This document shows positions 6,201-50,901 of a stretch of 50,901 bases of DNA, piece by piece. The stretch's first letter is position 1. Each line of letters opens with the position of its first letter. Origin of the DNA: Candidatus Gastranaerophilales bacterium (GTDB lineage: Bacteria > Cyanobacteriota > Vampirovibrionia > Gastranaerophilales > Gastranaerophilaceae). The position numbers and the translations under genes are program-made. The notes beneath the pieces are model-generated. The model was given only the letters and a program-made list of their open reading frames with translations. It searched no databases and was not told where the DNA came from. The stretch lies in NCBI GenBank assembly GCA_947587605.1, contig CANPYB010000001.1:1-50901 (forward strand), written 5' to 3'.

Positions 6201-6764
6201 TTAATTATACTTATTCTGAACTTTAATAATATCACTTGTATCACAGTAATATAAAAACGCTTCTACGCATTTTGTTATTGTTTCATTTAATATTTTAAAT
6301 TCATCATCATTAAAATTTTGCAAAACGTAATCTTCCGATTTCATATATGGCGGTTGAGGACCTATTCCGATTTTTAATCTGTTAAAAGTATCAGTGCCTG
6401 CATTCTTAATTATTGATTTTATACCGTTATGTCCGCCGTCTGAACCTTTTGGTCTTATTCTGATTTTTCCGATATCCAAAGATATATCATCATACACTAC
6501 AAACAAATCTTTAATATCTGTTTTATAAAAGTTATTTATTGCAAGGAGTGCTTCACCTGATAAATTCATAAATGTTTGAGGTTTAACAATCCAAAGAGCT
6601 TCATCTTTATATATTCCTTTTGCGATTTCGGATTTGAATTTATTTTCCTGTTTAAATTCGGCACTTATAGTTTGCGCAAGTTTATCTGCGAACATAAATC
6701 CTGCATTATGTCTTGTCTTTGAATATTTTAATCCCGGATTTCCCAAACATATAATTAATTTCAT
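6201..6764 (-). CDS. pth: peptidyl-tRNA hydrolase
   Basis: MKLIICLGNPGLKYSKTRHNAGF and GHNGIKS motifs; 187 aa. Confidence 0.9.
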   Translation of the reverse strand: MKLIICLGNPGLKYSKTRHNAGFMFADKLAQTISAEFKQENKFKSEIAKGIYKDEALWIVKPQTFMNLSGEALLAINNFYKTDIKDLFVVYDDISLDIGKIRIRPKGSDGGHNGIKSIIKNAGTDTFNRLKIGIGPQPPYMKSEDYVLQNFNDDEFKILNETITKCVEAFLYYCDTSDIIKVQNKYN

Positions 6765-6870
6765 TGCATGCCTATCCCTTTTTTAAAAATTATCCCACAT
6801 TTTTATTCTACTTACCAATTAAAAAGTTAAAGTTATGACTGATTATTAAATAAAAATAGGGAGATTTAAG

Positions 6871-7446
6871 ATGGCAAATAAAAAAGATACGCTAATGACA
6901 ATGAAAAGCAGTGAAATGCTTTATAATTTTCTTGAGAATACAAATTTACATAAAAAAGATTTTGCTCAAATGATAGGTGTAACGCTTTCTTATGTTTACA
7001 ATTTAATTGATGAAACAATACCTTTTTCAACACGAAGCACGACTTTAGAACGTATAGCGACAGTAATGGATATATCACCCGAGGAATTCAGCGAATATAA
7101 AATTCCACAAGATCCTATAATAGTTGATGAGACGACAGAGTTTATAAGAGAAAAGCAAAAAGAAAAAAAGATGTCTACGGTTCAATTTTTAAAATCATTT
7201 CCGAGGAAACAAAGGTTAACTATCGTTGATATACTTAGAGGTGCAAGACCAATACCTTTAGATTGGGAGGATATAAGTTTAATAGCACAGGTTCTTGATG
7301 TATCAAAAGAGGAAATGTATGACTTTTGGGAAATGAGATTAAAGCAGGTGCTTCAAGCAGGCGGATTTAACTTTGAAAATAATCAAGGACTCGGGCTTGC
7401 AATGTTTGAATGTGCAAGAAATTACATATATAAAAATTCCAAGTAA
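6871..7446 (+). CDS. XRE-family helix-turn-helix protein
   Basis: HTH segment KKDFAQMIGVTLSYVYNLI. RBS gggag lies upstream of the ATG. Confidence 0.55.
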   Translation: MANKKDTLMTMKSSEMLYNFLENTNLHKKDFAQMIGVTLSYVYNLIDETIPFSTRSTTLERIATVMDISPEEFSEYKIPQDPIIVDETTEFIREKQKEKKMSTVQFLKSFPRKQRLTIVDILRGARPIPLDWEDISLIAQVLDVSKEEMYDFWEMRLKQVLQAGGFNFENNQGLGLAMFECARNYIYKNSK

Positions 7447-7448
7447 CT

Positions 7449-8270
7449 TTAGACTTTAACTTCACTAACGGTGATTTCAACATCTTTAGGTGATTTATAA
7501 GAATTTTCGTCATAATTAATCTTAATTAGTTGATAAGAGTGAGGTATATCCTTAAACGCAGGTGCACTGATATGCCTTACTCCGTTGTCATCCTTTTGTA
7601 CCAAAGATTGATGATAATGCCCTGTTGAAACCATAAGTATATTATTATATTTTTTTAACAGATTTTTATATTTATCCGCGTTAATCATAGATAGTTTATA
7701 TTCGTCACGAGGCGGCATGATGGGGCAGTGATGGAATATAATAAATAATTTTCTTGGGTATTTTATTAAAAGTTTTTCAAGCCAATCAAGTTGTTCCTGC
7801 GGAATTTCTCCGTGTTTTGATTGCGCAAAATCCGAGGTGTCGTCAAGCACAACGCAAACAAAATCGCTGTTAGGCTTAAAATAATAATATTTTTTCTTAT
7901 CATCTTGATTTTTATTAAACGCGGAAACGATATCAAGATAAATAGATTTTTCAAGTCCGGCAAATTCGTGAGCATCTGTATCACCAAAAGCAAGATAGTA
8001 AGGCTCTCTTATGGGGTATACCGCCCGCATAAAGCCGATAACGTCTTCTTCTTTTGAACGGTTAACATTATCACCGAGAAAAATGACAAATTCGGGTGAC
8101 TTTTTTTTAAGCGAAAGTGCCAAAAAATATAAATTTCTATCTAAATCTTCGTTTTCTAAAGTGTAGTGAACATCTCCGACTTGAGCGAACTCAAGTGTTT
8201 GCGCATAAGAACAGTGCATTAACATTAATGCCGAAAAAACGAGTAATAATCTTACAATAAATCTATTCAT
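7449..8270 (-). CDS. secreted metallophosphoesterase (calcineurin-like)
   Basis: Motifs GDVHY, FLGDNV, IFHHCP and GHYH. I chose the internal start MNRF (8270) because it gives a signal peptide and an ATGAATAG overlap with the upstream stop. The track ORF extends to 8303. Confidence 0.8.
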   Translation of the reverse strand: MNRFIVRLLLVFSALMLMHCSYAQTLEFAQVGDVHYTLENEDLDRNLYFLALSLKKKSPEFVIFLGDNVNRSKEEDVIGFMRAVYPIREPYYLAFGDTDAHEFAGLEKSIYLDIVSAFNKNQDDKKKYYYFKPNSDFVCVVLDDTSDFAQSKHGEIPQEQLDWLEKLLIKYPRKLFIIFHHCPIMPPRDEYKLSMINADKYKNLLKKYNNILMVSTGHYHQSLVQKDDNGVRHISAPAFKDIPHSYQLIKINYDENSYKSPKDVEITVSEVKV

Positions 8271-8502
8271 TTTTACATCTTTTCTGTATGAATTTTTGAA
8301 CAATTAATGCCTGTTTTAAGTCATTTTCATTGATAACTTTCATAGAAACTAATATTTCCCCGAAAGGCATTTTTTGAAACCTCTGTATATCAAGAACCAT
8401 GGAAAGGTGCATTAAATTAATCTTGCCGGATTCCAATAAAATTTCACCCAGTCTAAGATATGAAACATCTGACCAATCATCAATATTATACAGATTCTTC
8501 AT
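8263..8502 (-). CDS. stand-alone MshEN/T2SSE_N-like domain protein (candidate c-di-GMP binder)
   Basis: RLGEILLESGKINLMHLSMVLDIQ, then RFQKM, then PFGEILVSMKVINENDLKQALIVQ. This is two 24-residue motifs with a 5-residue spacer. Confidence 0.55.
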   Translation of the reverse strand: MKNLYNIDDWSDVSYLRLGEILLESGKINLMHLSMVLDIQRFQKMPFGEILVSMKVINENDLKQALIVQKFIQKRCKNE

Positions 8503-8966: not shown

Positions 8967-9040
<74 letters not shown>

Positions 9041-10484: not shown

Positions 10485-11027
10485 ATGTGTACAGTAGAAC
10501 CAATTAGAAATATGGAAGATTTAAAAAAAATTGAAAAAATCTTAAAAAAACAAAGTTTAAGAAATTTACTATTATTCTTAATTGGAATTAATTGCGGTTT
10601 ACGTATTTCGGACATACTAAATTTGGACGTTAAAGATGTAAAGAATAAAAATTATATAAATATATTTGAGATTAAGACAGGGAAATATAAAAGATTTCCA
10701 ATTAACACGAAACTAAAACCGCTTTTAAAAAAATTTACCAAAGACAGAAATGATGATGAACCTTTATTTATTTCTATTTTTAATAATAGAATGGAACGAA
10801 CTCAATGTTACAGAATCATAAAAAAAGCCTGTCAAGATGCAGGTATAGATTATATTGTCGGAACTCATACTTTAAGAAAAACTTTTGGTTATCATCATTA
10901 TCAGAAATTCAAAGATGTTGCAATATTACAAAAAATATTCAATCATTTCACTCCTCAAGTAACATTAAAGTATATAGGTATAGATCAAGACCGGATAGAT
11001 GAGAGTTATATTAATTTTGTTTTATGA
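10485..11027 (+). CDS. small tyrosine recombinase/integrase (catalytic domain only, 180 aa)
   Basis: Catalytic signature present: GLRISD (R), HTLRKTF (H..R), FNHF (H), TLKYIG (Y). Confidence 0.85.
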   Translation: MCTVEPIRNMEDLKKIEKILKKQSLRNLLLFLIGINCGLRISDILNLDVKDVKNKNYINIFEIKTGKYKRFPINTKLKPLLKKFTKDRNDDEPLFISIFNNRMERTQCYRIIKKACQDAGIDYIVGTHTLRKTFGYHHYQKFKDVAILQKIFNHFTPQVTLKYIGIDQDRIDESYINFVL

Positions 11028-11055: not shown

Positions 11056-11238
11056 TTTATCTCAACAATATTATAGAATTGTTGAGATAAAATTAAAATT
11101 AACTATTTAAGTTTAACACAAAAATTTTTATATTTATAAATTGTTAAATATATTAATAAAATTTTTAACTGCTTAATTTCAGATATAGTTTGTATTCTAC
11201 CAATCTGAGCATACAACAATTCTATAATATTGTTGCAT
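11056..11238. promoter_or_regulatory. candidate invertible switch: two lox-like sites in inverted orientation flanking 129 bp
   Basis: Site 1 (11056-11091): 14-bp arms around spacer attataga. Site 2 (11211-11238): arms around spacer tctataat. The 22-bp cores 11063-11084 and 11214-11235 are exact reverse complements. Confidence 0.5.
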
Positions 11239-11278: not shown

Positions 11279-12133
11279 ATGGTAAAAGTTTCAATTATAA
11301 TACCTTGTTATAATCAAGGACAGTATGTTGCCGAAGCAATTAATTCCGCATTATCACAGACATACTCGGATATAGAAATAGTATGTATTAATGACGGTTC
11401 AACAGATAATACTCATAAAATAATTAAGAGTTTTGCAGATAAGTATAAAAATATATTATACATTAACAGTGAGAAAAATAATGGTGTAATTTATTCACGA
11501 AACACTGCAATTAACGCCTGTCATGGTGAGTATATATTACCATTAGATGCAGACGATAAAATAGAGTCTGCTTATGTAGAGAAGGCAGTAAAAATATTAG
11601 ATACTAATCCTAATATTGGGATTGTTTACTGCAAAGCAAGAATATTTGGCAAAAAAAATAGAAATTGGAAATTAAAAAAATTCAATAAATCTGACATATT
11701 ATATGAAAACTGTATTTTTAACACCGCATTGTTCAGAAAATCAGATTTTTTAAAAGTCGGAATGTATAAAAATTACATGATGAATGGTATGGAAGATTTT
11801 GATTTATGGCTTTCATTTATTGAACAAGGTCTTGATGTTTATCAAATTGATGAAGTTTTGTTTTATTATCGTAAATATGACCAAGAAACGAGAACACAGA
11901 TATTCCAAAAAAATCAAAATGAAATTTGGCTGTCGGTAATCAAAAATCACATAAATTTATATTTAAATGATAGACAATTTCTTGAAAGACTTATATTTTC
12001 TAAACCGTTAGAAGCAAGGAAAAAATATAAAAAATACAAAAACATTTTTTATATTTTACTTGCAATAACTGCTATTGAGTTAATGATAATTCTAATCTTT
12101 ATAATTACCTTAGTTTGGAGGGGTAATGTATAA
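11279..12133 (+). CDS. family 2 glycosyltransferase
   Basis: VSIIIPCYNQGQYVAEAINSALSQTY, INDGSTDNT and LDADD motifs, with a C-terminal TM segment. Confidence 0.85.
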   Translation: MVKVSIIIPCYNQGQYVAEAINSALSQTYSDIEIVCINDGSTDNTHKIIKSFADKYKNILYINSEKNNGVIYSRNTAINACHGEYILPLDADDKIESAYVEKAVKILDTNPNIGIVYCKARIFGKKNRNWKLKKFNKSDILYENCIFNTALFRKSDFLKVGMYKNYMMNGMEDFDLWLSFIEQGLDVYQIDEVLFYYRKYDQETRTQIFQKNQNEIWLSVIKNHINLYLNDRQFLERLIFSKPLEARKKYKKYKNIFYILLAITAIELMIILIFIITLVWRGNV

Positions 12134-13439
12134 AGAAAAGGTTTTTATTATAACCCAGAATGAAATTGTAAATACTACAGGCGGAGCTATTACATCTTTT
12201 ACAGATATTTCTAAATTTCTTTGCGAAAAATATGATGTATATGCTATTTGCTATACAAAAGAAACCCGAAATCCTAATTTAGATGAAAGAATTAAATTTA
12301 TAAATTTATACAATTATTATGGAGGCAGAAATACATTTTCAAAGGCTATAAATCTTTTTATTAAAGAGAATAGACCGTCTATTATTCTTTTTTTCTTTGC
12401 ATATTTATATGTTAATGCAAAATTGTCTAAAAAATATAATGATATTCCAAGAATATTATTATTTAGGTCAAGACCTGATTTTTATTTTGCGGTACATAAA
12501 AAAACAAAACATTTAAAAGATATATATATTAATACAATTTCACAAATTTTATTTCCAAGCTATCACAAATTATTACCCGAATATATAAGGAATAAAAATG
12601 TTGTTTGTATTCCAAATCCAACGAAATCGGTATTAAAATATATAAATACCGATGCGGAAAATAAGAAAATAATATATTTAAGCCGAATAGACTGTTGGAA
12701 AGGTCATGAATTTTTAATAAAGTCTTTTGCTCTGATTGCAAATAAATATAAAGATTGGACTATTGATATATACGGGCAGTCTCAGCCGCCGGAGCTTGAG
12801 CTGCAATTAAAGAAACTCGTTAAATCTCTGCACTTGGAAAATCAAATTCATTTTTGCGGAGTGACGAAAAATCCGTTTGAAACATTCATAAACTATGATT
12901 TTTGTGTATTTCCGTCTTATTTTGAGGGATTTCCCAATGGACTTTCAGAAGCGTTAAGCGTAGGTTTGCCTGCGGTCGGATTTAAAGGTGCCAGCGGTGT
13001 AAATGAATTAATTATTGATAATAAGAACGGGCTTTTGGCAGAAGAAGACTATAGCGATTTTGCTGAGAAAATTGAAATTTTAATAAATGATAAGAAATTG
13101 CGTTCTAAATTTAGTCAAGAAGCAGTTAAATCAATGAAAAAGTATGATTACAATATTATAAAAGATACTTGGATTAATCTGATAAATGAAACATTAAGCA
13201 ATAAGTGTACGGAACAGAGTAAGGAATTATATTCGGTTTCAGAAAAGTATGAATTATTTTCCATTAATAAATTACTTTCTATGCAAAATTCAAACATGAA
13301 ATTTTCATATCGTAATTTTGCAGAAAAAATATTTTCTATAAAAAATTATTACTCAAATTCCTGTAAGAAAATTTTAACAATATTAGGAATGAAAATAACA
13401 ATAAAAAAGCAGTTAAAGGAGAACGGGAGTGGGTATTAG
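12126..13439 (+). CDS. family 4 (GT-B, Glycos_transf_1) glycosyltransferase
   Basis: FPSYFEGFPNGLSEALSVGLPAVG motif. RBS ggagg; 8-nt overlap with the upstream gene. Confidence 0.85.
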   Translation: MYKEKVFIITQNEIVNTTGGAITSFTDISKFLCEKYDVYAICYTKETRNPNLDERIKFINLYNYYGGRNTFSKAINLFIKENRPSIILFFFAYLYVNAKLSKKYNDIPRILLFRSRPDFYFAVHKKTKHLKDIYINTISQILFPSYHKLLPEYIRNKNVVCIPNPTKSVLKYINTDAENKKIIYLSRIDCWKGHEFLIKSFALIANKYKDWTIDIYGQSQPPELELQLKKLVKSLHLENQIHFCGVTKNPFETFINYDFCVFPSYFEGFPNGLSEALSVGLPAVGFKGASGVNELIIDNKNGLLAEEDYSDFAEKIEILINDKKLRSKFSQEAVKSMKKYDYNIIKDTWINLINETLSNKCTEQSKELYSVSEKYELFSINKLLSMQNSNMKFSYRNFAEKIFSIKNYYSNSCKKILTILGMKITIKKQLKENGSGY

Positions 13440-14184
13440 TATAGGAATTATCGGCTGTGGATTTATTGGCGGAGCATTAAAAAAATGGATAGAAGAACAC
13501 AATCCGTCAATTAATATTTTGGTTTCAGATCCGCCAAAGGGAATGAATGATGATGTTTCAAAAGCTGATGCGATATTTATCAGTATTCATATTCCGACCG
13601 AGAAAAACGGAACACAAGATTTAACGCTGTTAAAAGAAATAATCGAAAATCTGCCTTTGAAAAAACCGATATTCATAAGAACGACAATAACTCCCGGCAC
13701 ATCAGACAGATTATCAAAAGAAACAGGCAGGCATGTATATTTTATGCCGGAATTTTTAACGGAACGAACAGCTTATGAAGATTTTTGTTCTCAGCCTATG
13801 GTGTTTACTGCAGAACCGGAATTACTAAGTTTGATTTTTAAAGGTAAAAAACACATAGAAATGTCTTCCTTAGAGGCAGAAATTACGAAATATGCGCACA
13901 ATGTATTCGGCGCATTAAAGGTAACATATTTTAACGGAATTTATGACTTATGCAAGAGATATGAGGCAAATTACAGAAAAATTCAACAAGGAATTTTATT
14001 AAGCGGATATATAAATACACCACACACACAAGTTCCCGGTCCTGACGGCAAATTCGGATACGGAGGCAAATGTTTTCCTAAAGATGTAAATGCGTTTACA
14101 AAAATTACGGAAGGACTTCCGCTGCACAGTTTATTAAAGGAATTACAACCTTTAAATATTAAATTTAGAGGTGAAGATAAATAA
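13429..14184 (+). CDS. compact UDP-glucose/GDP-mannose dehydrogenase-like protein
   Basis: Rossmann motif IGIIGCGFIGG, PEFLTERTAYEDF (cf. NPEFLREG) and catalytic-Cys motif GGKCFPKD. At 251 aa there is no C-terminal nucleotide-sugar-binding domain. Confidence 0.6.
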   Translation: MGISIGIIGCGFIGGALKKWIEEHNPSINILVSDPPKGMNDDVSKADAIFISIHIPTEKNGTQDLTLLKEIIENLPLKKPIFIRTTITPGTSDRLSKETGRHVYFMPEFLTERTAYEDFCSQPMVFTAEPELLSLIFKGKKHIEMSSLEAEITKYAHNVFGALKVTYFNGIYDLCKRYEANYRKIQQGILLSGYINTPHTQVPGPDGKFGYGGKCFPKDVNAFTKITEGLPLHSLLKELQPLNIKFRGEDK

Positions 14185-15203
14185 TGAAAGTATTAGTTAC
14201 GGGTAGTGCAGGGTTTATAGGTTATTTTGTTGCGTTGAGACTGCTAAAAGCAGGCTATACCGTTATTGGTATTGATAATGTTAATGATTATTATGATGTT
14301 AATTTAAAAGAAGCGCGGCTTAAAAATTTACATCAATTTGAAAATTTTATAGAAGAAAGAATAGATTTAGTTGATAGAATAAATTTAGAACGTATTTTTA
14401 AAGAGCATAAACCACAAAGAGTTTTAAATTTAGCTGCCCAGGCAGGAGTAAGATATAGTTTTGAAAATCCGTATGCTTATATAGATTCAAACATTACAGG
14501 TTTTGTAAATATAGAAGAACAGTGCAGACATAATGATGTTAAGCATTTTGTTTTTGCTTCAACCGCCTCAATTTATGGGGCAAATAAAAAAATGCCATGG
14601 GATGAAACAGACGGCTGTAATCATCAATTAAGTTTGTATGCAGCGACAAAAAAAGCAAATGAAGTAATAGCACATTCTTATGCGCATTTATTTAATATCC
14701 CGACAACGGGGTTAAGATTCTTTAATGCATATGGGCCCTGGGGCAGACCGGATATGGCTTTATTTATATTCGTAAAAAATATTATTGAAGGAAAACCTAT
14801 AAATGTATTTAATAATGGTCAAATGATTAGAGATTTTACTTATGTAGAAGATATTGCCGAGGGTGTTTGTAAAGTGCTTTTAGGGAAAGTTCCCGAAATT
14901 GATGAAAGTTGGAATGGGAATTCAGCTGTTCCTGACCCGTCTTCAAGCGGAGTAGCACCTTTTAAAATTTATAATATAGGGAATTCTCATCCTGTTGAAC
15001 TTATGCGGTATATAGAGCTTATGGAAAAAGAAATAGGCAAAAAAGCTATTATAAACTATATGCCGATACAACCGGGAGAAGTAGTTAAATCTGAAGCTGA
15101 TAATTCTGATCTTTATAAAAATTTTGATTTTAAACCTAAGGTGAATGTTGAAGAAGGTGTTCACAACTTTGTTAAATGGTATCGGGAATTTTATGGGAAG
15201 TAG
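14184..15203 (+). CDS. NAD-dependent epimerase, UDP-glucuronate 4-epimerase-like
   Basis: MKVLVTGSAGFIGYF, the YAATKKANE (YxxxK) motif, and the DNVNDYYDVNLKEARL signature typical of UDP-GlcA epimerases. Confidence 0.8.
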   Translation: MKVLVTGSAGFIGYFVALRLLKAGYTVIGIDNVNDYYDVNLKEARLKNLHQFENFIEERIDLVDRINLERIFKEHKPQRVLNLAAQAGVRYSFENPYAYIDSNITGFVNIEEQCRHNDVKHFVFASTASIYGANKKMPWDETDGCNHQLSLYAATKKANEVIAHSYAHLFNIPTTGLRFFNAYGPWGRPDMALFIFVKNIIEGKPINVFNNGQMIRDFTYVEDIAEGVCKVLLGKVPEIDESWNGNSAVPDPSSSGVAPFKIYNIGNSHPVELMRYIELMEKEIGKKAIINYMPIQPGEVVKSEADNSDLYKNFDFKPKVNVEEGVHNFVKWYREFYGK

Positions 15204-15206
15204 TTT

Positions 15207-15704
15207 ATGAAAATATTTAAAAAAATAAAATTTTACGACGGAAAAACAGAAATATTTTTATTTAACATAAAAGTATTTTCATACAGAAAAAAAGTTAATA
15301 ACGGATATGACAATGCCGAATACGTAAGGAGACTTGGCGTAAAAGTCGGTGAAAATACATATATTTGTTCCGGCTGTATATGGGGAAGTGAACCTTATTT
15401 AATTGAAATAGGAAAAAATTGTTTGTTATCGATAAACATAACTTTTTTAACTCATGATGCGTCGGTTCATGTGTGTAAACAGTATTTCTCCCAATCATAT
15501 ACAAGTGCAAACGCTGAAAATAATGCAATTTTTGGAAAAATCAAAATAGGGGACAATTGTTTCATTGGTTGTTCGTCAATAATTTTGCCGAACATAACTA
15601 TAGGAAATAACTGTGTAATTGGTGCAGGAAGTGTAGTGACAAAAAATATTCCCGATGGTGAAGTTTGGGGGGGGGCAGCCAGCTCATTATATAAAGAAAA
15701 CTAA
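15207..15704 (+). CDS. hexapeptide-repeat sugar O-acetyltransferase, C-terminus set by a G9 tract
   Basis: Left-handed beta-helix repeats (IGDNCFIGCSSIILPNITIGNNCVIGAGSVV). The G9 tract at 15667-15675 falls in the VWGG motif. Confidence 0.8.
   Translation: MKIFKKIKFYDGKTEIFLFNIKVFSYRKKVNNGYDNAEYVRRLGVKVGENTYICSGCIWGSEPYLIEIGKNCLLSINITFLTHDASVHVCKQYFSQSYTSANAENNAIFGKIKIGDNCFIGCSSIILPNITIGNNCVIGAGSVVTKNIPDGEVWGGAASSLYKEN
15667..15675 (+). repeat. homopolymeric G9 tract (candidate slipped-strand phase-variation site)
   Basis: Counted directly: tttGGGGGGGGGcagcc. Confidence 0.9.
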
Positions 15705-15865
15705 GGAATTAGCTGAAAAAATAGAAAATATTTTAAACAGCAGTGAACAGCTGGAACTGCAAAATATTATACAACAGCGGAACAGGAGTATGAAATAAAT
15801 AAACAAGGAAAATTAAGAATGAAAAAATACATAACAGGAGCAAAAGTATATAAAGGAGATTGTTT

Positions 15866-16727
15866 ATGTCGTTAAAAAAAGAAATTTTTTCAATAAGTAA
15901 CAAAATAATAAATAACAAGTCATATAAAGAAATTAAAATTTTGGGTATAAGATTAAGGTTTAAATCGAATCTTTCAAGACCATATAAATTTAAGGTAAAT
16001 TCAAAATATTTATCTAATAAATCAAAATTAGATCCATTCAAATATGATGACGATATGAATGATTTATACACATATTTTTTAAATTCTAATGATAAAAGTA
16101 TTGATAAAATGCATCATTACTTTCACATTTATAATAATCATTTTGAAAAATTCAGAAATAAACCCGTAAATATTTTGGAAATAGGAGTTTGCAAAGGAGG
16201 TTCTTTGCGAATGTGGAAAAAATATTTTGGAGAAAAATGCCATATATATGGGGTTGATATAGACCCTGCCTGCAAACAATATGAAGATTTAGAAAATAAT
16301 ATACATATTATGATTGCAGACCAGGGAAATCTAAAATCAATGCAGGATTTAATGAAACAGCTTCCCCAAATAGATATATTAATAGAAGATGGCGGGCATA
16401 CAACAAATCAGCAAATAACAACATTCGAAGCCTGCTACGATAAAATTTCCGATCTGGGGGGGGGTATATTTGGTAGAAGATTTGCATACTAACTATTGGA
16501 CAGAATTTATTGACTCCAAAAATACTTTTGTTGAATATGCAAAAGAACATATTGATGCTCTTAATGCCTGTTTCTTTAATTCAAATGACAGGTATAGAAG
16601 TTTGGAGGGAAAAGACAATTTGGAAGTTCCGTTATTTACTTGTATCACAGATAGCATTTCTTTTTATAACTCAATAATTGTTTTTACAAAAAAGAGAAAT
16701 TCAATTCCATTAAGTGAAAGAAGATAA
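15866..16727 (+). pseudogene. class I SAM-dependent (sugar O-) methyltransferase split by a frameshift at a G9 tract (phase-OFF state)
   Basis: Track ORFs 15860-16492 and 16470-16727 are two halves of one enzyme. LEIGVCKGGSLRMW and IEDGGH lie upstream, VEDLHTNYW downstream, and G8 would fuse them. ATG at 15866 with RBS aaggag. Confidence 0.8.
16456..16464 (+). repeat. homopolymeric G9 tract (candidate phase-variation site)
   Basis: Counted directly: gatctGGGGGGGGGtatatt. Confidence 0.9.
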
Positions 16728-16800
16728 AATCGGGTAGTCAGTATAAAACAAGGAAAAAATAAGAAAAATTTTAGAAAAATAAAAAAAGGAGCGATGTAAT

Positions 16801-17943
16801 ATGCAAAATGAAAATATGATACCTTTATTTAAAGTTTTTGTATCAAAAGATATAGATAAACCGTTACTTGAAACTATTCATAGCGGATGGATTGGCGAAG
16901 GACCGAGGGTTCAAGAATTTGAGGCGGTTTTGAAAAAATATTTTGGAAATGATAATTTGGTAACTTTAAATTCGGGTACATCGGGTCTGCATTTGGCTTA
17001 TCATATGGCATTACATCAAAATGATTATAAAGGTTATTATAATTCAAATGTAGATGAAATAATAACTACCCCTATTACCTGTACAGCAACAAATACTCCA
17101 ATTTTATGTAACGGAGCAAAAATAATTTGGGCTGATGTTGATCCTGTGACCGGTTCAATATCACCTGAAGATATAGAAAACAAAATAACTAAAAATACAA
17201 AAGCTGTTACAATGGTTCACTGGGGTGGTAATCCTTGTGATATAGATAAAATTAATGAAATTGCTCATAAAGCAGGAATTATGACAATAGAAGATGGTGC
17301 GCATTCTATGGGGATGGAATATAAAGGTAAAAAATTCGGCAACCATTCAGATTTTTCTGTTAATTCGCTTCAAGCAATTAAACATGTAACTTCTGTTGAC
17401 GGAGGTTTATTATGGATGAAATCTGAAAAAGATTATCAACGAGCAAAACTTTTAAAGTGGTATGGAATAGATAGAACAATAAGAGAAGGTATAGATTTAA
17501 GATGTGAAATAGATGTTCCGGAAGCCGGATACAAATTTCATATGAATGATGTTTGTGCATTAATAGGAAATGTTAATTTTAAACATTTACCGGAACTTCT
17601 TAAAAAACACAGAGATAATGCTAAATTTTATGATAAAGCATTTAAAAACTGTTCAAATGTTCTGCCTGTTTTGGAAAATCCTAACGGCAAATCTGCTTAT
17701 TGGCTGTATACAATTCATGTCGATAACAGAGACGAATTAATGCAAAAGTTAAAAAGTTTAAATATTATGTCTTCAAAAGTTCATGCAAGAAATGATACTC
17801 ACTCAATGTTTTCTGAATTTAAGTCCGAATTACCGGGAGTTGAAGCATTTAATAGAACACACTTATGCATTCCCGTAGGTTGGTGGGTAAGTGAAAACCA
17901 AAGAGAATATATTGCTGAACAAGTTATAAAGTATGCAAAGTAG
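16801..17943 (+). CDS. DegT/DnrJ/EryC1/StrS-family PLP-dependent sugar aminotransferase
   Basis: 380 aa with typical family layout: the IEDGAHSMG motif and a lysine region SLQAIKHVT. Confidence 0.85.
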   Translation: MQNENMIPLFKVFVSKDIDKPLLETIHSGWIGEGPRVQEFEAVLKKYFGNDNLVTLNSGTSGLHLAYHMALHQNDYKGYYNSNVDEIITTPITCTATNTPILCNGAKIIWADVDPVTGSISPEDIENKITKNTKAVTMVHWGGNPCDIDKINEIAHKAGIMTIEDGAHSMGMEYKGKKFGNHSDFSVNSLQAIKHVTSVDGGLLWMKSEKDYQRAKLLKWYGIDRTIREGIDLRCEIDVPEAGYKFHMNDVCALIGNVNFKHLPELLKKHRDNAKFYDKAFKNCSNVLPVLENPNGKSAYWLYTIHVDNRDELMQKLKSLNIMSSKVHARNDTHSMFSEFKSELPGVEAFNRTHLCIPVGWWVSENQREYIAEQVIKYAK

Positions 17944-17955
17944 GGGTGACTGTTA

Positions 17956-18585
17956 ATGAAAAAAATTCGAAGAAAATTAATCAATACGTTATTTAAAAAT
18001 AATATATTATATACAAGGCTTTATGTTTTTTTTCTTTATTTGAGTAAAAAGGAACTGAATTTGAATTTATGCTCCGGAACTTTATATGAAAAGGGCTGGA
18101 TAAATATTGATGAAAACGGTTCAAATAAAGTTGACTTGATTATGAATATAGTTAATATAAATAAATTTTTTAAAAAAAATTCAATAAAGAATATAAAAAT
18201 TATTCATGGACTTTCATATCTTAGATTTCATGAGGCTATAGATTTTTTGCAGTCTTGTTATAATTTGCTGGAAATTAAGGGGGGGGGGAAAATTATCATA
18301 GAATTTCCCGAAGTGAAAAAACTTTCAAATAGCATTATTAATATAAATTCTTTGTATGATGAAAAAAATTATTATGATTACATTGAAGCACTTCGTGCTT
18401 TTTATGCTTTTGATTTAGACCAGCATAAGAAAAAAGTTAAATATACTACATATAGATTTGGCTGGTCTGCAATGCATATTAAGTATGAATTGGAAAAACT
18501 TTCATATAAAAATATTGAAATAAAAAATCCGGAATATCACGATAAGAGATTAAATCGTGATGTCAGAATTGAAGCTCGGAAATAA
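17956..18585 (+). CDS. class I SAM-dependent methyltransferase-like protein carrying an in-frame G10 tract
   Basis: LNLCSGTLYEKGWINID (motif I-like) and LLEIKGGGKIIIEFP (post-I/III-like). The GGG is encoded by the G10 tract. Confidence 0.6.
   Translation: MKKIRRKLINTLFKNNILYTRLYVFFLYLSKKELNLNLCSGTLYEKGWINIDENGSNKVDLIMNIVNINKFFKKNSIKNIKIIHGLSYLRFHEAIDFLQSCYNLLEIKGGGKIIIEFPEVKKLSNSIININSLYDEKNYYDYIEALRAFYAFDLDQHKKKVKYTTYRFGWSAMHIKYELEKLSYKNIEIKNPEYHDKRLNRDVRIEARK
18279..18288 (+). repeat. homopolymeric G10 tract (candidate phase-variation site, currently in frame)
   Basis: Counted directly: attaaGGGGGGGGGGaaaatt. Confidence 0.9.
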
Positions 18586-18650
18586 AATGTACGGCAATTC
18601 TTTATAAAAATAGCCGATAATATTTAAATTTATGCGGATAGGATAAAACT

Positions 18651-19577
18651 ATGTTAAAAGATAAAAAAATAAATTTTATAACATCAACAGATGAAAATAC
18701 AGGTTCAACAAGAATTAGAGTATATGACTTAGTAAGAGAGTTAAAAAAAAGGGGCTATAATGTAACAATTAATGATAGTTCAAAAAAATCTGAAATCGTA
18801 GTATTTCAAAAAAGTAATTATAAATATTTAAGAAAACGTTTTTTTAAACTTTTGTTTAGTAATAAATTTTTAATATTTGATATTGATGATTTGTTTTTTG
18901 ATAAAATATTAAATCTTGTTAAATATTCGGATTTTGTTATTACAAGCTGTGAATATATGAGGGAACAATATTTAACATTTAATAAAAATATAGGAGTTCT
19001 GGGGGAAACACCTGATGTAATTGCGGAGGATATACCACTGCGAAATCCTATTGCAAATTTAAAGGAATGTAAGATAGGATGCTTTGGTACATCGTATAAT
19101 ATAACTTTGATAAAAAAATTCAATATAAAAGATGTTAAAATAATCACTCGAGGCGGGGATATTGAGTGGAGCAGAGAAACAGTTGATTATGATATCCAAA
19201 AATTTGATTTAATTGTAATTCCTCAAGAAAAAACTCCCGAAGGATTAGCAAAAGATAACTGCAGAATGTTAAAAACTCTTTATCTTGGTGTTCCTGCATT
19301 GGTTAGTGATATTCCGGAATACGTTAAACTTGCGGAGCTTGTAAATTATCCAAAAGAATTTATTGTACATGATGGTGAAGACTGGAACGAAAAAATTGAA
19401 AAAATAAAATCCGGTGAAATCAAGTTTGATTTTGATTTTGAAAAATGCAGAGAAATATTATACAAAAATTACAGTACAAAGGTAAGGACTGATATGTGGC
19501 TGGAAATTGTTTCAAGACATTATACTCAGCATAATCTAAAAAGACATTTGAAAAAGTTGTTCTTTCATTTGTTTTAG
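18651..19577 (+). CDS. putative glycosyltransferase (GT-B-like), weak call
   Basis: 308 aa. The C-terminal segment LGVPALVSDIPEYVKL resembles the GT4 donor-binding region. Last gene before the right repeat. Confidence 0.4.
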   Translation: MLKDKKINFITSTDENTGSTRIRVYDLVRELKKRGYNVTINDSSKKSEIVVFQKSNYKYLRKRFFKLLFSNKFLIFDIDDLFFDKILNLVKYSDFVITSCEYMREQYLTFNKNIGVLGETPDVIAEDIPLRNPIANLKECKIGCFGTSYNITLIKKFNIKDVKIITRGGDIEWSRETVDYDIQKFDLIVIPQEKTPEGLAKDNCRMLKTLYLGVPALVSDIPEYVKLAELVNYPKEFIVHDGEDWNEKIEKIKSGEIKFDFDFEKCREILYKNYSTKVRTDMWLEIVSRHYTQHNLKRHLKKLFFHLF

Positions 19578-37936: not shown

Positions 37937-39082
37937 ATGGAAAAGAAGAAAGAATCATATAAGTTTATTGATTTATTTGCAGGAGCAGGTGGCTTGAGCC
38001 TTGGTTTAGAACAAGCGGGTTTTCAAGTGGCTTTTGCCAATGAAATTAATCCTACATGCGCTGAAACATATTTGTATAATAGAAATTTATCTAGTGACCA
38101 AATTTTTGTTGGTGATATAAATGACCTTATAAAAAACATTAATAAATATAAAAAGTATTTTAATGATGTTTCTTTGGTATGCGGTGGTCCCCCCTGTCAA
38201 GGCTTTTCCATGGCGAACAGGCAGAGATTAATAGATGACCCCAGAAACAAATTATATAAAAGTTATTTAGAATTTTTGAGTAACATTGTGCCTAAATTTT
38301 TTATTATGGAGAATGTTAAAGGCATGGCAAATAAAATTGATGAGATATTAGAAGATTTTCACAATCAACTTGGAAATCAATATAATATTGAATATAGAAT
38401 ACTTAATGCAAAAGACTTTGGAATTCCGCAAAATAGAGAACGTCTTTTTATTATTGGTAATAGAATTGGAATTAAGTCAAAAGATATATTTGATGAAGTT
38501 GAATTATATAAAGTTGTTGATCAAGTAACTTTAGGTAATGCTATTTTAGATTTACCAAAATTAAAACCTAATAAATTAAAAAATAATACGGATTATGAGG
38601 ATGATGATTGCGGATATTTTGAAAAAAATTATAACTATACAAAAACTAATTTTTATAATTTTATAAATAATGGTCGAACTATAACAAAGTTATATAATCA
38701 CAAAAGCAGATATAATAATGAAAGAGATATAAAAATATTCGGGTTGTTACCGCAAGGTTGTAATTCTCTTCATGAATCTATAAAAGATATTATGCCTTAT
38801 CAAAGCAGAAATAATATTTTCAAAGATAAATATTTTAAACTGTCTGAAAATAACATTTGTAAAACAATCACATCTCATATGAAATTTGACTGTAACATGT
38901 ACATTCACCCAACACAAGCAAGAGGTTTATCTCCAAGAGAGGCAGCACGAGTGCAAACATTTCCTGATGATTATGTCTTTAAAGGTCCTCAAAATAGTTG
39001 GTATATGCAAATTGGCAATGCAGTGCCTGTTAAATTGGCTGAGGTAATAGGAAAATGTATAATAAACAAAATAAAGAATTAA
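37937..39082 (+). CDS. DNA (cytosine-5) methyltransferase 1
   Basis: Motif I DLFAGAGGLSLG, IV GGPPCQGFS, VI ENVKGM, VIII QNRERLFIIG, X QIGNAVPV. Confidence 0.95.
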   Translation: MEKKKESYKFIDLFAGAGGLSLGLEQAGFQVAFANEINPTCAETYLYNRNLSSDQIFVGDINDLIKNINKYKKYFNDVSLVCGGPPCQGFSMANRQRLIDDPRNKLYKSYLEFLSNIVPKFFIMENVKGMANKIDEILEDFHNQLGNQYNIEYRILNAKDFGIPQNRERLFIIGNRIGIKSKDIFDEVELYKVVDQVTLGNAILDLPKLKPNKLKNNTDYEDDDCGYFEKNYNYTKTNFYNFINNGRTITKLYNHKSRYNNERDIKIFGLLPQGCNSLHESIKDIMPYQSRNNIFKDKYFKLSENNICKTITSHMKFDCNMYIHPTQARGLSPREAARVQTFPDDYVFKGPQNSWYMQIGNAVPVKLAEVIGKCIINKIKN

Positions 39083-40164
39083 AACATTTAGAACTATTTG
39101 CAGGAATAGGTGGATTTCGCCTTGCTCTTGAATTACTGGGCAAAGATTTTGGCATTGATATGAATTGTGTCGGTTATTCTGAAATAGATAATTATGCTGC
39201 TCAAAGTTATAAGGCTAATTTTGATACAGATAATAATGTTGAAATTGGGGATATTGTTAGCTTTACAGAAAACAAAAAGAATATAAAAAATTTACAAGAT
39301 TTTTCTTTATTGACAGGGGGATTTCCTTGTCAAGCATTTAGTATGATGGGATTACAAAAGGGATTTAAAGACTTACGCGGAAATGTATTTTTTAAGATAA
39401 TTGATATTCTAAATGAAAAACATCCTAAAATGATTTTATTAGAAAATGTTAGAAATTTAATTTCTCATAATAAAGGTGAAACATTTAAAACCATAGTAAA
39501 TCTAATTAGGAATACCGGATATAATGTTTATTTTGATGTTTTTAATACAAATAATTTTGGATTAGCTCAAACAAGAAATCGTGTATTTATATTGGCTTTC
39601 CGAAAAGATTTAAATATACCGAGAGATTTTGATTTTACTCAAGAAATTGTTAAAATATCGTTTGATAGGATAAAAACAAAAACTTCATTACAGCTACAAA
39701 ACAATGTTTTAGATGTATTAGAAAAGAATGTAGAAGACAAATATTATATTTCGGAGATACTAAAACCAACTATATTGTCAAATGGGACAAAAAACTTTTC
39801 AAGTAAATCAGAAATAAATCCTATAATCGCGAAACCACTTACTGCTACTATGGTAAAAATGCATAGAGCCTGCCAAGATAACTATTTTAGTGATGATTTT
39901 ATTCATTGCAAAAATCCAATCAAATATAAAGAAAAAGAATATACAATGGAGCAGTTATTAAAGAAAAGGATAAGAAAAATCACTCCGCTTGAAGCACTAA
40001 ATTTTCAAGGTTTTCCTAAGTCATATTGCGTAAATGCACAAAAAACGGGTGTTAGTAACCATCAATTGTACAAACAAGCAGGAAATGCAGTTAGTGTCAA
40101 CACTGTATATGCAATATTATATTATTTACTTATTGAAAAGGATGTATTGGAATTTAAATCATGA
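39055..40164 (+). CDS. DNA (cytosine-5) methyltransferase 2
   Basis: Motif I ELFAGIGGFRLA, IV GGFPCQAFS, VI ENVRNL, VIII QTRNRVFILA, X QAGNAVSV. 28-nt overlap with methyltransferase 1. Confidence 0.95.
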   Translation: MYNKQNKELKHLELFAGIGGFRLALELLGKDFGIDMNCVGYSEIDNYAAQSYKANFDTDNNVEIGDIVSFTENKKNIKNLQDFSLLTGGFPCQAFSMMGLQKGFKDLRGNVFFKIIDILNEKHPKMILLENVRNLISHNKGETFKTIVNLIRNTGYNVYFDVFNTNNFGLAQTRNRVFILAFRKDLNIPRDFDFTQEIVKISFDRIKTKTSLQLQNNVLDVLEKNVEDKYYISEILKPTILSNGTKNFSSKSEINPIIAKPLTATMVKMHRACQDNYFSDDFIHCKNPIKYKEKEYTMEQLLKKRIRKITPLEALNFQGFPKSYCVNAQKTGVSNHQLYKQAGNAVSVNTVYAILYYLLIEKDVLEFKS

Positions 40165-41267
40165 TGGATAACTTTTTTAAATTGCACAATGAAAAAATAA
40201 TAGGTTTTAAGGCATTAACATATGCAGATTTGGGGAAAAGTAGTACAAGTAACCAAACTCATATAGGTTTATTTGATGATGTATTAACTTTTTTGCCTAA
40301 TCAGCCAATTGTTGAAGATATGGCAATGTTTATCTATAATTCAAAAGCAGATATTTTGAGTTTAAATTTTGATAGAATAGAGAATAAAGACGGTTCTTTT
40401 AGAAGTCCTAAAATAAGAATTGGAGGAAGAAATACAGTATCAATTGTTTCTACCATAAGAAGTATTGCACGAGAATCAGATGATTCTTTGACGTGGTACT
40501 TATTTTGGTTCGGTTTAGAAAGTGAACAGGCTGTTTTTTGGTTATTTAACAATATGTCCCAAACATATGCAGATATTACTAATTTGGGATTATCTTTGAA
40601 TTACAATTCAAAAGGACGTCTTACTGAAAGGGATTCAATATTTAATAAAATACTTTTATATATAGAAAGTGATATAGATAGATCTACCGAAAGTGTTATG
40701 CGAGAATTAGAGATAGAAACACAAATTCCCGGTAAATTAATCACTGAACGAAAAATAAGAAAATATGATGTTCATAGAGCTCAAAAATTGTTTACCGAAA
40801 TAGGTAAACAAGGAGAAGAATTTGTTGCAGAATATTTTGATAAATTGAAATATAATAATCAAATTAAAAATTATAGTTGGCTAAATAAATCATCAGAAAG
40901 TGGGTTCCCGTATGATTTTTATTATCAAGATTTATCAGATAATGTTATATATTTAGATGTAAAGACAACAAAATTTGATTTTAAACAAAGAATTATATAC
41001 AGCAATAAGGAAATAGAATTTGCACTATCATTGCCAAATAATTGCTACAATATATATCGAGTTTATAATTTAACAGAAATAAATGCAAATTTGCGTATAT
41101 GTAGAAATTGTGCAAATTATTTTAATTCAATAAATGGAAATATTTTAACAATTCAAAGAAATCTAAATAGTATCAATACGGATATTCAATCAATAAGTAT
41201 TTCATTTGAACCTACCGTATCTAATCTTGAATTTGATACAGAAATTTTATTAGAAAAAAACAATTAA
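40161..41267 (+). CDS. putative restriction endonuclease with C-terminal DUF3883-like PD-(D/E)XK domain
   Basis: ATGA overlap with methyltransferase 2. The C-terminus GKQGEEFVAEYF...GFPYDFYY...IYLDVKTT...SNKEIEFA...YNIYRVYNL fits the DUF3883 pattern. Confidence 0.6.
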   Translation: MMDNFFKLHNEKIIGFKALTYADLGKSSTSNQTHIGLFDDVLTFLPNQPIVEDMAMFIYNSKADILSLNFDRIENKDGSFRSPKIRIGGRNTVSIVSTIRSIARESDDSLTWYLFWFGLESEQAVFWLFNNMSQTYADITNLGLSLNYNSKGRLTERDSIFNKILLYIESDIDRSTESVMRELEIETQIPGKLITERKIRKYDVHRAQKLFTEIGKQGEEFVAEYFDKLKYNNQIKNYSWLNKSSESGFPYDFYYQDLSDNVIYLDVKTTKFDFKQRIIYSNKEIEFALSLPNNCYNIYRVYNLTEINANLRICRNCANYFNSINGNILTIQRNLNSINTDIQSISISFEPTVSNLEFDTEILLEKNN

Positions 41268-41357: not shown

Positions 41358-41373
41358 CCGGGCGGATTAAAAA

Positions 41374-41460
41374 CGGAGAAGGGGGGATTCGAACCCCCGG
41401 CAGAGTTGCCCCTGCACAAACGTTCCAGGTTTGCACCTTAAACCACTCGGACACCTCTCC
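41374..41460 (-). tRNA. tRNA-Ser (anticodon GGA)
   Basis: 87 nt. Acceptor ggagagg/cttctcc, anticodon loop ctggaac, long variable arm, T arm ggggg-ttcgaat-ccccc. Confidence 0.9.
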
Positions 41461-41536
41461 GTATAGGTTTAATCTATTTTAACGGATTAAATCTTTATTG
41501 TAAATACAAATTTTTACTTTTTTGTATAATTATTTT

Positions 41537-50095: not shown

Positions 50096-50901
50096 TCAAT
50101 AGGTTACATTTTTTAAGCATTTTAATTTCCGACCATCAAAGAAAAATGCTTTAGCAGCTTTTTTTGTTCCGTCAGCTGCTTCTTTAGTCCCTTTTTGAAA
50201 AATAGGTAATTCTCCATCTTCAAAGGCAAGTAATGTAGCAGCTTCCTTTGTTCCGCCTAATGAAAATTTATTACCTTTTTGAATTTGAAATAATTTTCCA
50301 TCTTTAAAGAAAAATATTTTAGCAGATTTCTCTGTTGAGTCTGCTAAGTTCTTATAACCCATACGAAATTCAGATAATTTCCCATCATTAAATAAAAATG
50401 ATTTGGCAGTTTGTTCTGTTAAGTCAGCGTATTCTTTATAATATTTATCACAATTAATTAATTTACCATCTTCAAATAAAAATGATTTAGCTGTTTCTTT
50501 TGATCCGTCGGCTAATTCATTAAAATCTTTAGCACACTCAGTTAATTTCCCATCACTAAATATAAACGCTTTAGTAGTTTTCCATGTTCCATCTGCTCTT
50601 GCTTTAAGACCTGTTATCAATTGATATAATTTCCCATCTTCAAAGATAAACATTTTAGCAGCTTCACCTGTTCCGTCAGCAAGTTCTTTCATACCTTCTA
50701 TTATGTGTGTTATACTGTTATTTTCTAAGTATACAACATCTTTTAATCCTTTTTCTTTATAAGTTTCAATGCTGTTAATAATAACTTTATTATTTATTAA
50801 TGTAAAAGATGATTTTCTTTTTAAAATACCTTCTTGTAATTCTTCAAAAACTTTTTGTCCGTTTTCTTCTTTTATTTTTTCGGGACTTGATTTTAATGCT
50901 T
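50096..50901 (-). CDS. tandem-repeat protein (about six 33-34-aa repeats), 5'-truncated by the window edge
   Basis: Repeat unit ADGTxExAKxFxFEDGKL. By hand translation the frame stays open from 50692 to 50901, so the true start lies outside the window. Confidence 0.6.
   Translation of the reverse strand, partial: ALKSSPEKIKEENGQKVFEELQEGILKRKSSFTLINNKVIINSIETYKEKGLKDVVYLENNSITHIIEGMKELADGTGEAAKMFIFEDGKLYQLITGLKARADGTWKTTKAFIFSDGKLTECAKDFNELADGSKETAKSFLFEDGKLINCDKYYKEYADLTEQTAKSFLFNDGKLSEFRMGYKNLADSTEKSAKIFFFKDGKLFQIQKGNKFSLGGTKEAATLLAFEDGELPIFQKGTKEAADGTKKAAKAFFFDGRKLKCLKNVTY

Follow-up and report, generated by a model that had tools for sequence, protein, structure and literature searches.

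The DNA analysed here, referred to as the window, was 50.9 kb long with a GC content of 31.3%. It contained an 8.3-kb glycan operon (16% of the window) in which three poly-G tracts, named A, B, and C, all lay within 2.6 kb, with G on the coding strand. The operon and the elements preceding it were annotated as follows.

10485..11027, + strand: small tyrosine recombinase of 180 aa, heading the operon (Pfam Phage_integrase, E = 2e-26)
11063..11235, no strand: candidate promoter inverton, perfect 22-nt inverted repeats at 11063-11084 and 11214-11235 with 129 bp between them
11279..15203, + strand: GT2, GT1/GT4, NDP-sugar dehydrogenase-like (251 aa), and NAD-dependent epimerase/dehydratase genes, upstream in the same operon
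15207..15704, + strand: gene A, sugar acetyltransferase with hexapeptide repeats (LbH); C-terminally truncated to 165 aa at G9
15655..15798, + strand: 3' portion of gene A; in the G8 frame it reads WGGQPAHYIKKTKELAEKIE... and is open and conserved
15667..15675, + strand: poly-G tract A, G9; full length (196 aa) with G8 or G11, truncated with G7, G9, or G10
15866..16492, + strand: 5' part of gene B, Methyltransf_24 (CmcI / 'cephalosporin hydroxylase'-like) class I SAM methyltransferase
16456..16464, + strand: poly-G tract B, G9; full length (288 aa) with G8 or G11
16470..16727, + strand: 3' portion of gene B, open in the +1 frame and containing the invariant EDLHTxYW motif
16801..17943, + strand: DegT/DnrJ/EryC1-type sugar aminotransferase (Pfam PF01041, E = 4e-77), without a tract in the window
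17956..18585, + strand: gene C, in frame (ON) with G10; 209 aa, from a rare family whose predicted fold resembles that of class I SAM methyltransferases
18279..18288, + strand: poly-G tract C, G10 for full length (ON); G9 or G11 gives 114 or 125 aa
18651..19577, + strand: gene D, the last of the operon, 308 aa, no family assigned

The order of the upstream glycan genes was kept in five related loci (L003, L006, L009, L018, and L048). Relatives kept gene D, which had no match in Pfam, NCBIfam, or PDB sequence searches, at the 3' end of their loci. A pathway to Ara4N, pseudaminic acid, or legionaminic acid was weighed and dropped because all equivalog scores were far below their cutoffs.

A recount of the whole 50.9 kb agreed with the preliminary description that the runs of G9, G9, and G10 were the only G or C homopolymers of at least 7 in the window. 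The next-longest runs it had named were also recovered, namely a G6 (41381-41386) within a tRNA-Ser (41373-41461) and a C6 (38189-38194) within a C5 DNA methylase. The other 42 kb, which included ligase, aaRS, AddA, and Pth genes among others, was without G/C runs of at least 7. Under a first-order Markov model of the window, approximately 0.014 G runs and 0.007 C runs of at least 9 were expected versus 3 observed, with a Poisson P of ~1e-6 for three G/C runs of this length. A/T runs of at least 9 were expected about 17 times and observed 0 times, so the G tracts were the longest homopolymers of this AT-rich sequence; no SSRs of other types worth noting were found in the window. Counted over the window and the related loci, all poly-G tracts were located in glycan genes. 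Codon usage set the tracts apart as well. GGG was the rarest Gly codon (12.4%), and among 63 Gly-Gly dipeptides the GGG-GGG pair occurred four times, each time in tract A, B, or C, with GGC-GGA preferred elsewhere.

Gene A matched Pfam Hexapep/Hexapep_2 (E ~1e-13) and, among NCBIfam models, the NeuD/PglB/VioB and WbbJ-like families below cutoff. Tract A had one G too many (or two too few) for the full-length frame. When read in the G8 frame, the 3' part of the gene aligned with tract-free homologues reading WAGNPAHFIKKTKELAEKIE, with P158, A159, and I162 invariant among homologues, and 42 codons of this downstream frame were open, conserved, and without secondary lesions. The tract lay at 79% of the gene length. 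The truncated protein retains the entire beta-helix, and its activity could persist. A homologue search with the repaired A found no in-frame (ON) allele from the window species in the protein collection.

Gene B, read with G9, encoded 208 aa from its ATG (Pfam PF13578; product P0001), and its tract likewise had one G too many (or two too few). Repaired B aligned end to end with homologues of 286-287 aa and was 67% identical over 288 aa to the orthologue in L048, with a 1-residue insertion at the tract compared to homologues. Downstream of the tract, 85 codons were open, conserved, and without secondary lesions. Among the contigs found for this species, tract B was seen in the window alone, and a homologue search with repaired B found no in-frame (ON) allele from the window species in the protein collection.

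Gene C, with three homologues found in total, had no match in Pfam, NCBIfam, or PDB sequence searches. Its AF2 model was of medium confidence (pLDDT 66.6), and when the model was compared to the PDB with Foldseek, the 50 matches listed were all SAM methyltransferases with TM-scores of 0.35-0.48. A motif-I-like sequence was present as LNLCSG in gene C and as LHLGCGG in P0147. The tract was carried by a 2-residue insertion (LLEIKGGGK in the window versus LLE--EGG in homologues), and at G10 the protein had the length of its homologues. Together with the Pfam matches of A and B, these data bore on an earlier proposal that the tracts occupy Gly-Gly(-Gly) codons of an acetyltransferase and two methyltransferases. 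The acetyltransferase and the first methyltransferase were confirmed by Pfam; for C, the fold-level resemblance, with its modest TM-scores, supported a methyltransferase at the level of predicted fold only, and the family assignment by Pfam failed.

We compared the operon with its counterparts in related MAGs. The most syntenic relative (L048-L051) was 91% identical in the UGDH-like gene, 87% in the epimerase, 62% in A, and 67% in B; there, A and B were intact and no G/C run of at least 6 was present. Because tract-free orthologues in related MAGs aligned through the repaired frames, the tracts were regarded as lineage-specific gains at Gly-Gly sites. The alignments indicated that the full-length (ON) frames of A and B are ancestral, and the earlier statement that two tracts were one G away from the full-length frame held for both genes. 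Elsewhere in the same locus, other related MAGs carried tracts of G7-G9 in GT4, GT61, DegT, and hexapeptide genes, and tracts in related loci were also found in GT8 and UGDH-like genes. The DegT orthologue of a sister species contained G10/G11 (L006), and that in L009 contained G7. In one hexapeptide orthologue, the codon that holds the tract was the same in three species, whose tract lengths were G8, G9, and G10/11. Within Gastranaerophilales, poly-G switching in the glycan locus appears to have arisen repeatedly.

Tract lengths were then compared between near-identical genomes, a comparison that the preliminary description had proposed and that turned out positive. Exact-product look-ups with the window DegT, C, D, and epimerase returned almost no other contigs of the species; L001, L017, and L045 were found. 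L001, which came from another sample, was 99.68% identical to the window over 3.4 kb, and the only indel between them was at tract A, with G7 versus G9. L045 had G9 at tract A, and L017 had G10 at tract C, although L017 was 100% identical to the window and may share its sample. The length difference in the window species was therefore at tract A only, and both alleles seen there (G7 and G9) were OFF. In the sister species, whose DegT was 85% identical, the contigs L006 and L018-L022 from different samples were 99.89-99.99% identical over 2.5-13 kb. They differed by 8 indels, all at three poly-G tracts, versus 4 substitutions, so tract length accounted for two thirds of the differences. These tracts were located in the UGDH-like, DegT, and hexapeptide genes of the syntenic operon, and their states were G10/G11/G11, G10/G10/G10, G10/G10/G11, and G9/G10/G10, which correspond to four ON/OFF combinations of three tracts that differed independently, the all-ON combination included. 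Since L018-L022 were retrieved via the ON DegT product, their tract 2 was G10 by selection. In another related species, two assemblies (L009 and L032) had the same tract lengths; L032 was the one informative locus added by a JGI metagenome scan.

Three candidates from these comparisons were rejected. P0122/L045 was considered as a new tract allele, but it had G9 and a 128-bp deletion on a 1.8x contig; the deletion probably arose by misassembly or by loss of sequence between short TTTGG repeats. A GT2-methyltransferase of 589 aa versus 528 aa (L023/L024) differed by a start-codon SNP only, and the DegT 90% cluster included 362-aa proteins that were unrelated.

The sister-species contigs had coverage of 2-5.5x, at which single-base homopolymer miscalls are possible, and homopolymers of at least 9 are error-prone on all platforms. 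It could thus be argued, with the possible non-independence of L017 as a further point, that errors of sequencing, assembly, or polishing, such as homopolymer miscalls or poly-G from 2-colour chemistry, had produced the tracts or their precise lengths, and with them the frameshifts of genes A and B. However, tract A was recovered in three assemblies from different pipelines (the window, Logan L001, and ENA L045), with L045 agreeing on G9, and the allele of L001 was off by 2 bases, unlike the usual error of plus or minus 1. The tracts occupied defined codons between conserved flanks, and homologous tracts recurred in MAGs of other species, whereas poly-G chemistry artefacts occur at read ends and not inside conserved ORFs. 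Moreover, the window contained about 100 A/T runs of 7-8, yet intact long ORFs tiled 90% of it, indicating that homopolymer errors were not widespread. We therefore consider an artefactual origin very improbable.

The same comparisons were informative on gene decay, in which A and B would be pseudogenes frameshifted in accidental homopolymers and the length differences would be neutral drift without a part in regulation. The two out-of-frame alleles of A, the failure to find an in-frame A or B of the window species in the protein collection, and the variation of glycan gene content among relatives are compatible with decay. Against this, the downstream frames of both genes were preserved, and use of the rarest Gly codon, partly in inserted residues, is unexpected by chance three times in 2.6 kb. 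Furthermore, sister-species genomes that were essentially identical carried their tracts in ON as well as OFF lengths, and one tract position was kept across three species. Decay is accordingly an unlikely explanation of these tracts.

A third explanation accepts the G9 alleles as real and invokes recoding, where programmed ribosomal frameshifting or transcriptional slippage would yield full-length A and B constitutively. Long homopolymers can make RNA polymerase slip, and both G9 alleles would need the same -1-nt correction. Efficient transcriptional slippage, however, is documented mainly for A/T runs, and the G7 of L001 at tract A would need a different correction. At one and the same tract, the sister-species alleles included +1 as well as -1 states, which argued that there was no consistent requirement for recoding and left constitutive expression by this route with a very small likelihood.

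We consider it likely that tracts A, B, and C are hypermutable SSR contingency loci in a surface-glycan operon of Gastranaerophilales (Melainabacteria/Vampirovibrionia). Slipped-strand mispairing in replication would add or remove a G in each tract and, as the tracts are within reading frames, a change of length would toggle between full-length and truncated enzyme. Acetyltransferase A, the Methyltransf_24 methyltransferase B, and the methyltransferase-fold protein C would be toggled independently. In this assembly, A and B are at OFF length (G9, with ON at G8 or G11), with C ON at G10. Cells of one population would then vary in the acetylation and methylation of an amino-sugar glycan, presumably made by the adjoining dehydrogenase-like, epimerase/dehydratase, DegT aminotransferase, and glycosyltransferase genes. 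Three switches would by simple arithmetic give 8 glycan-decoration states. We infer that switching is reversible and occurs at a high rate, which for contingency loci of this kind means about 1e-5 to 1e-2 per division, and that the OFF state means certain loss of function for B and an uncertain one for A. The selective benefit could be, for example, escape from phage or host immunity.

The operon may be subject to a second level of switching. The candidate inverton followed the recombinase gene and preceded the GT2 gene. L016 and L048 each had a recombinase orthologue in the corresponding position and shared the architecture, with repeats of other sequence (arms of 46 nt spaced by 140 bp in L016, and of 26 nt spaced by 139 bp in L048); L023 had the inverted repeats alone. 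A flipped allele of the candidate inverton was not found among the loci compared. With a recombinase, perfect repeats, and an architecture shared by two further loci, the invertible switch suspected upstream in the preliminary description may well be real. The arrangement resembles the capsular-polysaccharide invertons of B. fragilis and the fimS element of E. coli with FimB/FimE, in that the operon of the window follows a small recombinase gene and an inverted-repeat segment; this likeness concerns the neighbouring element and not the poly-G tracts. The Fim recombinases are of ~200 aa, and B. fragilis uses the serine recombinase Mpi, which acts globally. The upstream element would thus match a candidate whole-operon ON/OFF inverton atop the SSR switches. 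For two-tier phase variation, in which the promoter inverton would switch the whole operon and independently evolved poly-G switches would act in single genes, yielding combinatorial glycan variants in a clonal population, we put the chances at even. To our knowledge, it is unusual for a single operon to combine an inverton with several SSR switches inside genes.

The closest known system was that of the polyG/C loci in the capsule, LOS, and flagellar-glycosylation regions of C. jejuni, e.g. its phase-variable methyltransferase, MeOPN-transferase, and maf genes. Like these loci, the tracts of the window were intragenic G tracts of about 9 in a low-GC genome, clustered in glycan-modification genes including methyltransferases. 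Predicted translational ON/OFF frameshifts, with states that combine between near-identical genomes in the sister species, were a further likeness. Unlike C. jejuni, the bacterium is not a pathogen but an uncultured commensal of the Melainabacteria, the non-photosynthetic sister of Cyanobacteria, and the genes of the window were not orthologues of the Campylobacter ones. Mismatch repair is absent in Campylobacter, and an adjoining recombinase with a promoter inverton is, as far as we know, not a feature of the C. jejuni loci. Experimentally phase-variable polyG tracts of C. jejuni have a modal length of 9, and switching rates have been measured for its G8-G11 tracts (PMC3401435). The tract lengths of 9-10 match this mode, which was counted in favour of contingency loci. 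A similar likeness, that of slipped-strand frameshift switches in glycosyltransferase or glycan-modifying genes through which surface antigens vary, extended to the H. pylori futA/futB/futC genes (poly-C) and to the lgt/lic LOS genes of Neisseria/Haemophilus (poly-G or tetranucleotide), and tracts of the related MAGs were also in glycosyltransferases (GT4, GT61, and GT8). In contrast to fut, lgt, and lic, the switches of the window were in tailoring enzymes for acetyl and methyl transfer and not in glycosyltransferases, and they belonged to another lineage and niche.

Poly-G contingency loci are textbook knowledge for the host-adapted pathogens Campylobacter, Helicobacter, Neisseria, and Haemophilus, whereas invertons dominate the picture of phase variation in gut commensals. 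We know of no cultured representatives of Gastranaerophilales. Searches of the literature for SSR phase variation in Melainabacteria, Gastranaerophilales, Vampirovibrionia, or MAGs returned nothing relevant; the mechanism is well known, and a report of it in the Gastranaerophilales lineage was not found in the literature searched. If the two-tier reading is correct, then by these searches the system would be the first SSR 'phasome' in the sister lineage of Cyanobacteria and in a non-pathogenic gut commensal known from metagenomes only. The understanding of the slipped-strand mechanism itself would stay unchanged. If the tracts are contingency loci, frameshifted 'pseudogenes' in Gastranaerophilales MAGs should not be taken for gene loss. 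Their ON/OFF states could be scored in metagenomic reads, which would provide a culture-free handle on selection in situ, such as that by phage or IgA.

We scanned all homopolymers in the window, whose GC content was 31.3% over 50,901 bp. Exactly three G/C runs of 7 nt or more were found, as the preliminary description had counted by eye, and the next-longest runs were also those it had named, a G6 within tRNA-Ser (41381-41386) and a C6 within a C5 DNA methylase gene (38189-38194). The three tracts all lay in one 2.6-kb stretch inside a glycan operon:

15667-15675: tract A, G9, gene A (hexapeptide acetyltransferase); product 165 aa as assembled; G8 or G11 gives the full-length 196 aa
16456-16464: tract B, G9, gene B (Methyltransf_24 methyltransferase); product 210 aa as assembled (208 from ATG); G8 or G11 gives the full-length 288 aa
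18279-18288: tract C, G10, gene C; product 209 aa as assembled, full length; G9 gives 114 aa and G11 gives 125 aa

For runs of at least 9 nt, a first-order Markov model of the window predicted about 0.02 of G/C, versus 3 observed, and about 17 of A/T, versus 0 observed. Since such A/T runs were absent, the G tracts were the longest homopolymers in this AT-rich window. The longest A/T homopolymers measured 8 nt (eight A8 and sixteen T8); selection seems to act against long runs of A or T, making the G9-G10 tracts more conspicuous. GGG was the rarest Gly codon in the window (12.4%); of the 63 Gly-Gly dipeptides, four were encoded as GGG-GGG, every one of them within the three tracts.

The operon (11279-19577) had all genes on one strand, in the order GT2, GT1/GT4, short NDP-sugar-dehydrogenase-like, NAD epimerase/dehydratase, A, B, DegT-type aminotransferase, C, and D. 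It lay on a chromosomal contig carrying housekeeping genes (NAD-ligase, class I (Trp/Tyr-type) aminoacyl-tRNA synthetase, AddA-like helicase-nuclease, Pth, and tRNAs). None of the operon proteins reached an NCBIfam equivalog cutoff. Protein C had no sequence-family match and only 3 homologues in the large protein collection; its structure model was of medium confidence (pLDDT 66.6), and 50 of the 50 PDB matches listed were class I SAM methyltransferases at TM 0.35-0.48, so that its putative role as a methyltransferase was supported at the fold level only. The DegT protein matched species-representative genomes at 63-89% identity, and its closest matches were in syntenic loci of gut MAGs labelled Candidatus Melainabacteria, Gastranaerophilales, or Cyanobacteria bacterium UBA791. 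These matches, together with the flanking genes shared with a sister species (below), place the window in a Gastranaerophilales (Vampirovibrionia) MAG. The DegT protein's 90%-identity cluster in the protein collection also held 362-aa members (P0130-P0136) unrelated to DegT in sequence, an apparent clustering artefact of that collection.

With G8, protein B aligned end to end with homologues of 286-287 aa, spanning the invariant EDLHTxYW motif. The C-terminus of protein A with G8 (W-G/A-G-x-P-A-x-x-I-K-K-T-x-E-L-A-x-K) aligned with many tract-free homologues, in which P158, A159, and I162 were invariant, and protein C had the length of its own homologues. Because of these matches, the repaired frames of A and B are the native ones. 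Recoding is a very improbable reading of the tracts. As assembled, A and B stand at OFF lengths (truncated product) and C at its ON length (full-length frame). Loss of function is a safe prediction for B, because 87 residues including invariant motifs would be lost, and an uncertain one for A, because the tract lies 79% into the gene and the truncated protein would retain the whole beta-helix.

Homologues of gene A read WAGNPA at the tract site, with an Ala codon interrupting the run. At their tracts protein B carried a 1-residue insertion (ISDLGGVY versus ISD-DGVY in homologues) and protein C a 2-residue insertion (LLEIKGGGK versus LLE--EGG). The most syntenic relative (L048-L051) shared the integrase, GT2, GT1, UGDH-like (91%), epimerase (87%), A (62%), B (67%), and D (58%) genes, all intact and with no G/C run of 6 nt or more. 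Since homologues break the run or lack the inserted residues and this relative is intact without such runs, the tracts are derived. Neutral decay, with A and B as pseudogenes, was considered unlikely.

We compared tract lengths within the species for tracts A and C. Contig L001 (Logan assembly, DRR848704) matched window 12500-15895 at 99.68% identity; it differed by nine substitutions and one indel, the latter at tract A (G7 in place of G9). Tract A was G9 in L045, from another ENA sample (ERZ27060014, 1.8x coverage), and tract C was G10 in L017, a contig with 100% identity to the window whose independence is doubtful. L045 also lacked 128 bp of gene A (window 15533-15660), a gap bounded by two short TTTGG repeats and lying just upstream of the tract; it is either a true deletion allele or a misassembly.

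In a sister species (DegT 85% identical), the syntenic operon of the representative MAG locus L006 bore three poly-G tracts. Five contigs (L018-L022), drawn from Logan and from further samples of the study behind L006 and with a coverage of only 2-5.5x, were 99.89-99.99% identical to L006 over 2.5-13 kb; 8 of 8 indels fell at the tracts, and substitutions totalled 4.

Tract lengths and states in the sister species (UGDH-like / DegT / hexapeptide acetyltransferase); the second tract is G10 in L018-L022 by construction, because these contigs were retrieved by querying the in-frame DegT product
L006: G10 / G11 / G11; ON / OFF / OFF
L018: G10 / G10 / G10; all ON
L019: G10 / G10 / G11; ON / ON / OFF
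L020: G9 / G10 / G10; OFF / ON / ON

Lengths differed in related genomes, at tract A of L001 and at three sister-species tracts. A sequencing or assembly artefact is considered highly unlikely. Further tracts occurred in L003 (G8 in GT4 and hexapeptide genes), L004 (G9 in a GT61 gene), and L009 and L032 (G7 in DegT and G9 in the hexapeptide gene, the same in both assemblies), and none in relatives L002, L016, L023-L030, and L046-L051. The hexapeptide orthologue carried its tract at the same codon in L003 (G8), L009 (G9), and L006 (G10/11). An Elusimicrobiota MAG (L015) had an out-of-frame G16 (15630-15645), one G longer than the in-frame G15, in a GT8 glycosyltransferase gene close to its DegT homologue. 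Here a further uncultured phylum seems to have a poly-G contingency gene of independent origin. Every tract found was G on the coding strand of a glycan gene.

Classical phase variation by slipped-strand mispairing is the best explanation. Replication slippage would alter a tract by one G or more, the frameshift would toggle each enzyme independently of the others, and a clonal population would become a mixture of glycan decoration states. The frames, the derived tracts, and the length variation between near-identical contigs support the contingency-locus interpretation of the preliminary description. In function the system belongs with the polyG/C contingency loci that C. jejuni carries in its capsule, LOS, and flagellar glycosylation clusters, and it resembles the fut genes of H. 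pylori and the LOS genes of Neisseria and Haemophilus, but it is homologous to none of them. By analogy with C. jejuni, where nine is the modal polyG tract length and tracts of G8-G11 had high measured switching rates (PMC3401435), switching here would be rapid and reversible. The mechanism is known and unsurprising; full-text literature searches turned up no description of SSR phase variation for Melainabacteria, Gastranaerophilales, or Vampirovibrionia, or for MAGs in general. The finding helps in reading MAGs and offers a way to study, without culture, how selection acts on a commensal that has not been cultured.

A candidate invertible switch had also been proposed upstream, where we found:

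10485-11027: tyrosine recombinase, 180 aa, at the operon head
11063-11084 and 11214-11235: perfect 22-nt inverted repeats flanking a 129-bp segment directly upstream of the glycan genes

Each arm consisted of 7-bp inverted half-sites around an asymmetric 8-bp core. The same layout with different repeat sequences recurred in two related species (L016, 3868-4649; L048, 2817-3742), supporting the proposal; no flipped allele of the segment was seen. In a third species (L023, ~2650-2860) inverted repeats flanked an intergenic segment, and no recombinase gene was called in the 15 kb fetched. The 129-bp segment is a candidate promoter inverton, which suggests that two tiers of switching may act on one operon.

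The flanking Metallophos, HTH, and Pth genes were also present on a sister-species contig. This block adjoins the operon in the window (6201-8303) and in L018 (11638-13179), with the operon in opposite relative orientation; tRNA-Arg (8967-9040), a 347-aa ORF with no assigned family, and the recombinase lie between them in the window. This suggests that the glycan locus was rearranged, or acquired beside tRNA-Arg. Elsewhere, a tandem pair of C5 cytosine DNA methyltransferase genes followed by a NOV_C-domain protein gene (37937-41267) adjoins tRNA-Ser and forms a probable restriction-modification or defence island. At the contig end, an 84-bp (28-codon) tandem repeat of ~5 diverged copies (50136-50580) sits on the strand opposite ORF 50096-50692 (minus strand).
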